A DNA stretch of 62,865 bases, filler included, from Dirinaria sp. TL-2023a (GCA_051941275.1; 14 parts of 14 records of this genome joined end to end with filler, not necessarily neighbours in it), one strand, 5' to 3'; shown: positions 23,043 to 27,166, counted from the whole stretch's first letter. The notes: generated from the sequence alone by a model not told the origin. Program-made: numbers and translations.

Positions 23043-23780
23043 AGGAGCTACGAAGGGGGAAGAAATGATAAAAGTCGCATGGGCTATCAATAGAGGGGGC
23101 CGGGGAAATGTATCAAACGTTCCTCAATCAACGGCGTTTTATTCGTATTGTATCGTTCATTAGCAGCCGTATCTACCGGCGCCAAAAAAAAAGAAAAGAA
23201 AAGAAAATTAATATAGGGTTCTACTATTACATATCTTAATACTCCATCCCAAGTTCTATTCACAAAAAAAAACCTTTATTCCACACGGGAGAAAAAAAGA
23301 GAAAGTAACATGCAGATGCCTTGGAAGGTAAGGTAGGTTTATTGTACCTCATCTACCTTATCTTACCTCATGAAAAGCCAGGTAAGGAGATGGGATAAGT
23401 AGGTTGTTAAAAAAAAAAAAAAAAAGGAAGAATCTAACCCAATCTAACTTTCCTCAGAAACCCATCTGTTGAATATTAAATTTGGTTTCTGGTGCTGGAC
23501 AGCACACAGAATGAAAGATTCAAACTAGCCTAGCCCGATAGAGGTTTTGGCAAGAAGCTCGTTCAGTCTTCCGCGCATTCTTCGAAAGGAAAGTCACGAG
23601 ACTGTTCAAATCAAACGCCAGATTCCGAAAAACCCACTTCCAAAACCCTATATCTGGTTAGCCTTCTTATCTTTTTTAACATTCAAACCCTTGGTATAAC
23701 CCTAGGCAAGACAGATTAATAGGTGCTCCAGATACTGTGCCTAGAAGAAAAGGAGTAGGTATCTGGGTCCGAAGAGACTA

Positions 23781-23913
23781 CTCGTATTTACCTACTTTCT
23801 TGTCAGGGTTAGGGTTACACGCGATTTTTTACTTAGGGTTGATGAAAGGTCTTTTAATGGGGTGAAAAATAGCCTGTAACCCTAACCCTGACAAGAAAGT
23901 AGGTGGATACGAG
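23781..23913. mobile_element. 133-bp MITE with 39-bp TIRs and TA target duplication (Tc1/mariner-type)
   Basis: 23781-23819 and 23875-23913 are inverted repeats (37/39). TA lies on both sides. Removing the element plus one TA gives GAGACTAACCCGTTATAGCTTTCCTCAGAAATC, matching the uninterrupted array copy near 24977 (GAGGCTAACCGGTTCTAGTTTTCCTCAGAAATC). Confidence 0.85.
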
Positions 23914-25496
23914 TAACCCGTTATAGCTTTCCTCAGAAATCTGTTCAATCTCACGCGCATTCTTTGAAAAGAAAGTCACGAGACTGTCCGAATCAAACAC
24001 CAGATTCTGAACATCCCGCTTTCGAAACCTAACAGAGGTTAGTCTCTTGCCCTTTTCTTTAAACCCCTTGATTATATGTAACTCTAGAGATCTCATCCTC
24101 ATCTACCTTACCTTAAGGTATCTTAGGGGAAAGTGCGTGCCATTCTATCCTACTTCAGTTTTGAACCAGAGTCCAGAGAGACCAAACCAATCTAGCTTTT
24201 CCCATAAATATCCCTAGCTCACTTCTAAAAATCTTTCACAAGATTAGCTTCTCTTTCTTTTTCTTTTCTTAAGCCTCTTGGTACTAAGATACATAACTCG
24301 AGGTTAGACAGATTGGCACTCCACCCTGGTCTATCTTAGGGGAAGAGTGAGTGCTAATCTGTCTTCGCTTACAGTCCTTCAAAGGGTTTTTCAATAAAAT
24401 GTTCAACACAGTTCAGCTTTTTCTCAGAAAACTGTTCAGTCTTCGATACATGATTATAACTCGAAAACAGAAAGTCACAAGACTCAATCAACATCTGTTC
24501 GATTCAAACGGCAGATGCTGAACAGATCTCTTCCAAATCCCAATAATAGAGGTTGTAAGTTTCTTCCCTCCTTCTTTTCTTTGAACCCTTGGTTATTTGT
24601 AACTCTACCTTAGATGAGGTAAGACAAGTTGGCATACCAGGTACTGTACTGTACCTTAAGGGAATGTGACGGGAGTGTTAGTCTGTCTCAATGTTGTCAC
24701 AATTGAAGAGCTAAACCCGAAAGAGGTTTTGATAAGAAATCTGTTCAATCTCACGCGCATCGTTCATTGAAAGAAAAGTCACGAGACTGTTCGAGTAAAC
24801 GACAGAGACTGAACAGATCTCTTCTAGAATCCAAAAGGGGTTAGATGAACATCTACCCTATTTGTTTTTTTCAAACCCTTCGTTATATGTAACTCTACAT
24901 GAGGTAAGACAGATTGGCACTCCTCTTTTCATCTATCTTAGAGGAAGTGAGTGCCAATCTGTCCCAAGAATCTGAGGAGGCTAACCGGTTCTAGTTTTCC
25001 TCAGAAATCTGTTCAGTCTCACGCGCATTTCTCGAAAAGAAAATCATAACAATCTTGAACACGTCGAAATTCATCCGAACCGATCACATACCTTAAACAT
25101 TTCTTTCCCAAAACCCAGCAGATTTTATTTTCTTCCGTCTTTTTTCTTTTCTTTGAACCCTTGGTTATGTGTAACCCTACATGAGGTAGGACAGATTGTT
25201 TCCCCCCCTCTACCTTAGGGGAAAGAGTGTGCTAATCTGTCTCCCCTTCAAGGTTCTCCAAGAGTTTTACAAATAAAGTGTTCAAGACAGTTCAGCTTTT
25301 CTCAGATATCTGTCCAGTCTTGGACACATTCCTTATAAGAAAATTACGAGACTGTCCAAATCGACTACAGATCCTGAACATTTCTCTTTCAAAGCCCTAT
25401 ATCGGGCTAGTTTCTTATCTTTTCTTGCTCCAACCCTTGGTTATATGTAGCCATAAGTAAGATAGCTTGGCACTGCCTTCATCTAAGATACCTTAC

Positions 25497-25591
25497 TGTC
25501 GGACAAAATAAATCAACAAATACAGCAATAATCACCCATCAACTGTGGGGCTCCCTTTTGGTGCAAAATGCAAGGTTGTTGCTGTCTGACA
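25497..25591. mobile_element. 95-bp TG...CA insertion with 5-bp TSD (solo-LTR/TRIM-like)
   Basis: CTTAC at 25492-25496 and 25592-25596. Ends TGTCGGACA / TGTCTGACA form an 8/9 inverted match. The host unit is about 100 bp longer than its neighbours. Confidence 0.75.
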
Positions 25592-27166
25592 CTTACATTA
25601 AGGTAGCGAAAAGTGAATGCTAATCTGTCTTCTCTTAGGATCCTTTCAAGGGATTTCAAGAAAGTTTCTAGCCCGATAAAGGGTCTTGCAAGATACCTAT
25701 TCAGACTTCGACATATACCTGGAAAAGAAAGTCAAGAGACTGTCTAAATCAAATAGCAAATGCTGAACAGATTTTTTTCAAAAACCTATATCAGGTTAGC
25801 TTTTCCCCTTTCTCTGTCTCTATTTTTTTTTTCTTCTCCCAAACCATAGCTGTATGTAAACTTATACAAGACAAATTGGCACTCCCGCCTCATCTACCTT
25901 AAGGTAGATAAGATAACTTGGGAGAGTGAGTGCCAGTCTGTCTCATTGTTGTAAAAATGTTCAATCTCTCATGCATTATTAATGTTCCTCAAAAAGAAAG
26001 TCACAAGACTCACCTAAATCCATCCGAACCAAACGCCAGATCCTGAACAGATCTCTTCCAAAACCCTTTATCGGGTTAGCCTCCTTATTGTCTTTAGGAC
26101 CCTTGATTATATGTAACCCTAGGTAAGACAGATTGGCAGTCTCTTCATCGAAAAGAAAATCACAACCTAAGACTTACCTTACCGAAATCCATCCTAGTCA
26201 AACGCCAGATTCTGAACAGATCTCTTCCAAAACCCTTTATTTGGTTAGCCTCTTTTCATTTTTTTTAAAACCCTTGGTACACAACCCTACCTGAGGTAAG
26301 ACAGCTCTTCATCAAAAAGAAAGTCACGATCTAAGACTTATCTTAAATCCATCCGAATCAAACAGCAGATACTCAACATCCCGCTTCCAAAACCCTTAAT
26401 CGGGTTAGCCTCTTTATTTTTTAAAACCCTTGGTACATTTATAACCCTAGGTAAAACAAAACAACACTCTCTTCATCGAAAAGAAAGTCACAACTTAAGA
26501 CTTACCTTACCTAAATACATGCTAGTTAAACGCCAGATCCTGAACAGATCTCTTCCAAAACCCTTTATCTGGTTAGCCTCCTTATCTTCTTTAAACCCCT
26601 TGATTATAGGTAACTGTAGGTAAGACAGATTGGCACTCACTTTCCCATGAGTGCCATTCCATCCTACCCCAGTGTCCTCCAAGGCTTTTTTCTCACTCGA
26701 AAAGTATCTATCTAACCCAGTCTATCTTCCCCCAAATACTCATTCAACACCCAACATTTCCTATTAACAAAAAATATACCAAAAACCATCTAAACCAAAC
26801 CGACCACATAAGGTATCCTGAACAGATACCGTATTCTCCCAAATCCCCAAATTCGGTTCGGTTAAAGTCTTCCAGTTCCGGGCTCTTGGGCAATCAATCG
26901 AAAGTAAGGTACTCTTCCTTTTTATCTATCTTATAAGAGAATAAAACTGCTTTATAATAGAAAACTTCCTCAGCTCTCACCCAAGGTAAACCCACCCAAC
27001 CTTCCCCTTATACCACCTAACCCNNNNNNNNNNNNNNNNNNNNNNNNNNNNNNNNNNNNNNNNNNNNTTAATTAATTAANNNNNNNNNNNNNNNNNNNNN
27101 NNNNNNNNNNNNNNNNNNNNNNNAGTATGGGTTTGGAGGGGGGGAGGGGTGCGCGAGGCTGCTCAC

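Follow-up and report, generated by a model that had tools for sequence, protein, structure and literature searches.

A satellite-like tandem array of inverted dimers in Dirinaria sp. TL-2023a, with hairpins that probably are by-products of its layout

Here, I show that the long repeat units of a tandem array in the fungus Dirinaria sp. TL-2023a (GCA_051941275.1) are inverted dimers, each monomer comprising two copies of one subunit in opposite orientation, and I propose that the hairpins seen along the array stem from this DNA layout, not from a conserved RNA. The array, made of 12 units and two edge remnants, extends from about 23330 to 26910 in a window of 62,865 nucleotides (the whole stretch of DNA that was analysed, filler included, from whose first letter all coordinates are counted). 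A sequence-only reading of the window had seen a chain of three hairpins, A, B and C, in each full repeat unit. The explanation favoured here, to which I assign a probability of roughly 0.75, is that of a satellite-like, non-coding tandem array forming and decaying at the DNA level, its hairpins being by-products of the layout and not selected RNA structures.

That a diverged tandem array lies at this place, as the sequence-only reading had it, is borne out. A profile hidden Markov model (HMM) of the unit, made from four units, gives 12 plus-strand matches at 23532-26639 (E 1.6e-75 to 1e-14), besides weak remnants; the matches are spaced 160-565 bp apart, the monomers thus being repeated head to tail, and on the remaining 13 contigs of the window the model has no match with E<1. 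Blastn of the array against the window returns 90 high-scoring segment pairs, none of them outside 23300-27020, and the 15-mer GACAGATTGGCACTC of stem C occurs 10 times with at most two mismatches, always within the array, vs 0.13 occurrences expected. Tandem Repeats Finder reports a period of 164 (3.6 copies, 76% matches) at 26005-26602 only, which is the youngest part of the array; the rest escapes it because the older units are too diverged. In a multiple alignment, the long units (U1-U8, 233-383 bp) share 56-69% pairwise identity, with a mean of 63%, and the short ones (U9-U12, 164-194 bp) share 77-87%, with a mean of 81%. Overall, any two units diverge by 13-44%, and numerous indels are private to single units. 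A coding repeat was rejected: no stop-to-stop frame is longer than 108 amino acids, and the unit lengths, which range from 164 to 383 bp, are not multiples of three.

The architecture of the units emerges from a model of a module of ~165 bp, named H, that was built from the four short units alone and then run on both strands. Over the long-unit region (23519-25885) its matches alternate in orientation, seven on the minus strand (E 6.5e-10 to 0.09) being interleaved with eight on the plus strand. Three of the seven minus-strand matches cover model positions 52-169, and hence extend well past the A arm into the spacer, B and the C arm. An independent indication comes from the full-unit HMM, which also fits the minus strand nearly from end to end (positions 3-258 of 273), with a shift of half a unit. 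From this alternation it follows that each long unit of ~280 bp is an inverted dimer, rcH+H, in which rcH denotes the minus-strand copy. The other 13 contigs of the window (~58 kb) hold no copy of H. The matched length of rcH is 54-108 bp, vs 106-173 bp for H, the rcH halves being shorter because the mirrored spacer and B part were deleted. With arms of ~55-110 bp, the dimer bears terminal inverted repeats of the sort by which MITEs (miniature inverted-repeat transposable elements) and foldback elements are recognised. As a fallback, the sequence-only reading had suggested a satellite grown from a foldback element, a proposal with which an inverted dimer of one ~165-bp module agrees.

Seen in this light, "hairpin A" is the head-to-head junction of H copies, centred near TTCTTCGAAAAGAA, "hairpin C" is the tail-to-tail junction, centred near CCTTAAGG, and "hairpin B" is a 5-bp palindrome within H. 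A palindromic dimer that is tandemly repeated has two dyad centres per period, with no further cause needed, and since a stem-loop results wherever inverted copies meet, an array of such dimers cannot but resemble a series of conserved hairpins. Symmetry that is merely inherited can be told from RNA structure under selection by two simple tests, namely the pairing of arms in cis and in trans, and a half-unit model run on both strands. The 164-bp units are H monomers lacking both long hairpins, yet they are the ones amplified most recently.

The array opens with a left edge remnant (23330-23527), in which an inverted partial unit containing an A17 tract is followed by an A-left-like arm; the unit HMM matches its minus strand at 23474-23357 (E 0.0064), and a copy of the D15 family is located at 23422-23465. 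U1 (23519-23718) consists of rcH at 23519-23583 on the minus strand (E 0.0012) and H at 23578-23718 on the plus strand (E 5.5e-26). In U2 (23910-24155) an A-left arm at about 23912-23952 precedes a plus-strand H (23960-24087) and a C-right remnant (24135-24151), the C-left arm being lost, and U3 (24216-24321, plus strand) is a partial H that spans model positions 75-167 (E 2.3e-08). U4 (24347-24634) again shows both halves, with rcH at 24347-24440 on the minus strand (E 0.049) and H at 24462-24634 on the plus strand (E 7.4e-23). The best preserved unit, U5 (24673-24922), comprises a C-right arm (24673-24689), rcH (24704-24757, minus strand) and H (24763-24922, plus strand), and the same order is found in U6 (24949-25194), with its C-right arm at 24949-24965, rcH at 24966-25033 (minus strand) and H at 25031-25194 (plus strand). 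U7 (25226-25474) has rcH at 25226-25316 (minus strand, E 0.09) and H at 25337-25474 (plus strand, E 1.4e-18), and U8 (25614-25885) has a near-complete rcH at 25614-25721 (minus strand, positions 52-168, E 6.5e-10) followed by H at 25718-25885 (plus strand, E 4e-14).

Downstream, U9-U12 are four direct H monomers on the plus strand (25985-26639), at 25985-26143, 26144-26307, 26308-26470 and 26472-26639. Each short unit starts midway in the A loop, continues with the A-right arm, the pyrimidine spacer and B, and finishes with the C-left arm, which passes directly into the middle of the next A loop. The right edge (26649-26910, plus strand) retains a C-right remnant at 26649-26665 and a degenerate last H at 26777-26910 (E 5.4e-04), where the unit HMM also has a match (26812-26873, E 0.0011). 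The idea of a three-unit higher-order repeat, taken from the existence of two types of A-left arm, finds no support in the identity matrix.

The three hairpins per unit described in the sequence-only reading are well displayed by U5, the only unit to show all of them well; both A arms are present in 7 of 12 units, and so are both C arms in 7 of 12, but U9-U11 have neither pair, as they lack the A-left and the C-right arm. The left arm that had been quoted for hairpin A is absent from the plus strand; its sequence is merely what the right arm at 26058 gives when reverse-complemented, and that arm belongs to a unit without a left arm. Likewise, the perfect B stem GGTTATATGTAACC occurs nowhere, and a perfect 5-bp B stem is seen in 1 of the 12 units, as read from the alignment. 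The perfect stem-C pair at 24908-24922 / 24949-24963 is exact; the other stem-C pairs quoted do exist, but carry 1-7 non-Watson-Crick positions out of 17.

Two insertions interrupt the array. One is a foldback of 137 bp (23779-23915) with 54-nt arms that are 91% complementary and a 29-nt loop; it occupies the site expected for the tail-to-tail junction of U1, does not belong to the repeat family and has no second copy in the window. As DNA it folds at -46.3 kcal/mol (z -11.99), and its only resemblance in Rfam, to MIR2670, stays below threshold (37.8 bits vs a gathering score of 117). Each of its arms contains GGGTTAGGGTTA, that is, two telomere-like TTAGGG units, and TA is found at both of its ends. 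It may be a MITE-like insertion. The other insertion (25490-25605), ~115 bp of unrelated unique sequence, splits the tail-to-tail junction that follows U7 exactly in its middle and stretches the stem-C loop of U7 to 139 nt. Both insertions are thus located at junctions or centres of palindromes, where one would expect them if such sites are prone to breakage.

The relative ages of the two parts of the array are apparent, the long-unit part (~23519-25885) being older and the monomer part younger. The most economical course of events would begin with an inverted duplication of H, via fold-back or template switching, after which the dimer rcH+H, now present about eight times head to tail, may have been amplified by unequal exchange or replication slippage. 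A long neutral decay would have followed, during which asymmetric deletions in rcH cut the palindromy and the two unrelated insertions entered at junctions; long palindromes are unstable in vivo. Finally, the loss of one rcH half would have left an H monomer of 164 bp, of which a new round of amplification made four or five direct copies. How the duplication and the amplifications came about at the molecular level is my inference, and so is the lack of a function; on present evidence, nothing in the array would seem to suggest one.

If pairing were selected at the RNA level, the two arms of one unit should match each other more closely than they match arms of other units. No such preference is observed. 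For stem C (7 units, 17 positions), Watson-Crick pairs number 12.57 in cis vs 12.79 in trans, and the true arrangement is equalled or surpassed by 4506 of 5040 permutations. In the six units left when U7 is omitted owing to its 139-nt loop, 84.3% of the cells are paired vs 84.8 +/- 1.0 after shuffling (421/500), and not a single pair has changed on both sides; RNAalifold likewise gives stem C 16 pairs, of which 0 are compensatory. Along the same line, the local alignment score of stem A (7 units) is 11.57 in cis vs 11.86 in trans (3096/5040), and its duplex energy is -20.9 in cis vs -22.2 kcal/mol in trans on the plus strand (3865/5040) and -27.4 vs -27.2 kcal/mol on the minus strand (2361/5040). 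Within units, the A arms are ~64% complementary (196 Watson-Crick pairs among 305 aligned positions, gaps included).

The two G-U changes to which the sequence-only reading had drawn attention are real, but they reflect no bias. Read as plus strand, G-U and A-C mismatches stand at 12:11 in stem C and 7:15 in stem A, 19:26 in total, an A-C mismatch on the plus strand being a G-U on the minus strand. Nor are loops more variable than stems in every respect: this holds for indels, but not for substitutions, the mean pairwise identity being 0.72 for the A loop vs 0.61/0.68 for the A arms and 0.63 for the C loop vs 0.57/0.73 for the C arms.

Folding of the single units was compared with 60 shuffles each, and U5 was also compared with 200. 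On the plus strand, 5 of 12 units (U3, U5, U7, U8 and U12) reach z <= -2 and 7 of 12 fold no better than shuffles; on the minus strand, z <= -2 is reached by 3 of 12 (U5, U8 and U12). With 200 shuffles, U5 has z -4.82 (plus) and -6.84 (minus), and its stem C is a perfect 17-bp duplex of pre-miRNA-like size. The short units have z near 0, for example -0.30 in U10-U11, which is shuffle-like. When the seven long units are folded jointly by RNAalifold on the plus strand, only 9 pairs result, at -1.82 kcal/mol. Apart from one weak signal on the minus strand, to which I return below, pairing shows no evidence of selection.

The substitutions of the array have an ordinary spectrum. Measured against the consensus of the units, transitions number 182 and transversions 114, with 56 C>T, 52 T>C, 45 G>A and 29 A>G changes, and the G-U-compatible changes are therefore ordinary transitions. 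Repeat-induced point mutation (RIP), a process of filamentous ascomycetes that leaves an excess of C>T and G>A, preferably at CpA/TpG, was rejected as the main source of the "G-U" changes, there being no CpA bias (C>T is found in 11 cells at 9 CpA sites, 17 at 11 CpC sites and 12 at 13 CpT sites) and T>C being as common as C>T. The whole contig of the array (22617-27023) has a TpA/ApT index of 1.09 and a (CpA+TpG)/(ApC+GpT) index of 0.98, unlike all other contigs.

Some observations weigh against a purely DNA-level account. For the minus strand, RNAalifold predicts a structure of 26 pairs (-12.07 kcal/mol) in which part of hairpin A reappears, and this structure is 88.5% paired vs 86.7 +/- 1.0 in column-shuffled alignments (38/500), with 6 pairs changed on both sides vs 2.9 +/- 1.2 (8/500) and a covariation score of 0.242 vs 0.206 (24/500). 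When whole arms are permuted, all 26 pairs taken together amount to 141 Watson-Crick cells vs 133.9 +/- 3.2 (52/5040); the 19 long-range stem-A pairs alone give 99 vs 95.6 +/- 2.7 (746/5040, not significant), most of the excess coming from two local helices of 3-4 bp. The structure was, moreover, picked by RNAalifold, a program that favours covarying pairs, from the very seven related sequences used in the test. I rate the signal as weak because the excess resides in local helices and because the structure was chosen on the sequences on which it was tested; a real covariation of stem A on the minus strand would thus be a weak and unconfirmed possibility, though not a zero one. In addition, the array may conceivably serve as a Dicer substrate in a manner that depends on no covariation. 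Lastly, the composition indices of the array proper are borderline (TpA/ApT 1.03, (CpA+TpG)/(ApC+GpT) 1.02) vs 0.52-0.78 and 1.18-1.38 in the other 13 contigs, and given these deviating RIP-type values something other than plain neutral drift may have contributed to the decay.

It is in this context that the principal proposal of the sequence-only reading, a polycistronic structured-RNA or microRNA-like RNA (milRNA) precursor, has to be weighed. If the array were transcribed, either through transcripts that extend past the upstream gene or off the minus strand, on which the stems fold better, and if Dicer cut stems A and C, the hairpins of U3, U5, U7, U8 and U12 could be processed to small RNAs, and the locus would be a tandem, repeat-born cluster of hairpin RNAs. 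Both the processing of these hairpins and such a route to it appear quite improbable to me. The folding of some units, U5 above all, the pre-miRNA-like duplex of its stem C and the weak minus-strand covariation speak in favour of it, and read-through is conceivable as the array lies ~290-390 bp downstream of a plus-strand open frame. In size, too, the intergenic hairpins, some of which fold significantly better than shuffles, are like those of fungal mi/milRNA loci as treated in parts of PMC9757828. Those loci, however, are single hairpins defined by small-RNA read profiles, whereas the present one is a tandem repeat known from sequence alone. According to the same portions of that re-analysis of fungal hairpin RNAs, confirmation comes from such profiles, and a locus that overlaps repeats or transposons is barred from the higher tiers; a tandem cluster of this sort does not appear there, its main text using neither the word "tandem" nor "polycistronic". 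Against the RNA reading stands that arms gain nothing by pairing in cis, that neither strand is favoured by the mismatches, that pairing in stem C is without compensatory maintenance and that most units have lost the fold, the youngest of them being devoid of both long hairpins. No Rfam family was matched either.

A more specific origin, which does not exclude the satellite-like decay favoured here, is that the inverted dimer, which measures ~250-330 bp and ends in long inverted repeats, constitutes or once constituted a mobile foldback or MITE-like element, that the array arose from it by tandem or double insertion and unequal exchange, and that single copies are dispersed elsewhere. I consider this unlikely, while giving it more weight than any other rival. 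The unit is indeed one large imperfect palindrome, the second, unrelated foldback of 137 bp points to foldback sequences active or generated at the locus, and satellites derived from transposons or foldbacks are documented in animals, as stated in passages of PMC4079207 and PMC5932611. Yet the absence of H or unit copies from the other 13 contigs, themselves a tiny sample of the genome, counts against it, as does the absence of a recognisable target-site duplication at the arm ends (read from sequence and alignment). Dyad symmetry is, furthermore, continuous through both junction centres and leaves no termini to be defined, a continuity which a tandemly repeated palindrome yields by itself.

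The nucleosomal repeat length is close to 164 bp, the period of the short units, and one might think of a function at the DNA level, the array being a cruciform-prone or protein-binding repeat, such as a chromatin boundary, a regulatory array for a missing downstream gene or a centromere- or subtelomere-associated sequence. The (TTAGGG)2-like motif of the inserted foldback would suit this idea, and for Tribolium it has been suggested that the dyad symmetry of satellite monomers is relevant to centromeric chromatin (in sections of PMC13081366). It is nevertheless very improbable for an array that is short (~3.5 kb) and strongly decayed (63% identity), in which no segment is markedly more conserved than the rest and which adjoins an apparently ordinary open frame at 54% G+C. 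As to an artefact, the assembly is highly fragmented, and one might suspect that a draft of low quality has produced a chimera or collapsed the repeat wrongly, but units that differ by 13-44%, with indels and insertions of their own, make a mis-joining of reads unlikely, and collapse would yield fewer distinct units, not more; this last explanation can practically be set aside.

Among described systems, the closest kind is satellite DNA with inversely oriented subunits, followed by foldback- or MITE-derived satellites. A satellite of T. brevicornis, reportedly described by Mravinac et al. in 2005, is said to be an example of inversely oriented subunits. Another is TmSat2 of Tribolium madens, whose monomer of 704 bp has subunits in opposite orientation and a palindrome-like sequence of ~600 bp, as given in passages of PMC13081366. 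The Dirinaria array is like these satellites in that head-to-tail monomers each hold two opposite copies of a subunit and are able to fold back, in that extra short inverted repeats (here B) lie inside the subunit, and in that a single array combines monomers of one subunit orientation with the inverted form. It is unlike them in extent, with ~13 units in 3.5 kb on one contig as compared with megabases, in the far greater divergence of its copies (56-87% identity, with no sign of homogenisation), and in its host, a fungus as compared with a beetle.

Examples of the second kind, as presented in portions of the respective papers, are Tetris in Drosophila virilis (PMC4079207) and DTC84 in Donax (PMC3879986), and a double-insertion model for transposon-derived arrays is contained in part of PMC5932611. 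Here, as there, a palindromic block of a few hundred bp underwent tandem expansion and is accompanied by a second foldback insertion; the difference is that no transposase, definable termini, target-site duplications or dispersed copies were shown here within the 14 contigs. The Dirinaria array is a small example, from a filamentous fungus, of inversely oriented satellite-like DNA, with two phases of amplification and with asymmetric deletions eroding its palindromes, which may be of interest with regard to palindrome instability and to the birth of repeats in fungi.

Searches for relatives of the array gave no identity. The Rfam search suggested by the sequence-only reading returned no family for the units, that is, no gathering-level match in the array, and at E<=1 only MIR2670, mir-960 and SNORA43 appeared, far below their gathering scores and with none of them falling on a repeat unit proper. 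Exact scans with a 24-nt core of the A-right arm had 0 matches in metagenome, prokaryote-genome and viral contigs, collections that cover few or no fungal genomes and in which diverged relatives would be missed by this search. The two stem-C arms, combined with a gap in genome contigs or with degenerate positions in metagenome contigs, also gave 0 matches, with few or no fungal genomes covered, and the motif strings of the array were not found in the literature by exact string.

The A-loop part of H contains a GTTCGAATC-like motif (GTCCGAATC, GTTCGATTC, ATCCGAATC) at 24493-24510 and 23982-24000, with equivalents in other units. This motif resembles a polymerase III B box. An origin from a tRNA or from a short interspersed nuclear element (SINE) was rejected, ARAGORN and Rfam finding nothing tRNA-like in the array. 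Helitrons are marked by 5'-TC and 3'-CTRR termini and, some 10-12 nt ahead of their 3' end, by a hairpin. A Helitron-type rolling-circle array was rejected as well: CTAG or CTAA follows stem C at a variable distance of ~21-41 nt and is absent in some units, the next unit never begins with TC, and the contig carries no Rep/helicase gene.

The array is confined to one contig of 4407 bp (22617-27023). The window as a whole is made of 14 contigs, from 4435 down to 4363 bp in order of descending size, that are joined by 13 linkers (26 N-runs) of the structure N44-TTAATTAATTAA-N44, as at 4436-4535, 8970-9069 and so on to 58403-58502. The contigs being merely linker-joined, features across linkers are neither genomic neighbours nor syntenic; the linker at 27024-27123 marks the end of the contig in question, and the sequence past it is not adjacent in the genome. 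The only true genomic neighbour of the array is the putative 3' end of a gene (22617-23042, plus strand), with 141 codons open from the contig start and a TAG stop at 23040-23042. Its Ser/Thr/Pro/Gly-rich product has no Pfam family at E<=1, and its putative coding status is drawn from the open frame. The repeat begins after the 290-390 bp mentioned above, counted from this stop, and ends ~110-140 bp short of the contig end. An (AAAAG)n tract (23184-23207) lies between the open frame and the array, as does the A17 tract (23409-23425), which complements the pyrimidine spacer of the inverted partial unit at the left edge.

On other contigs of the window, open reading frames match Pfam entries for an STE domain with C2H2 fingers, ERG4/ERG24 (31644-32507), a BBE/FAD oxidase, P450 and GDS1, a set typical of fungi that points to a filamentous fungus as the host. 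The first of these, at 60458-61882, combines the end of an STE domain with two C-terminal C2H2 zinc fingers, which is the Ste12-like layout of filamentous fungi. The sole gathering-level Rfam match in the window is a tRNA-Leu(CAA) of 92 nt at 33969-34060, on another contig, which probably bears an intron.

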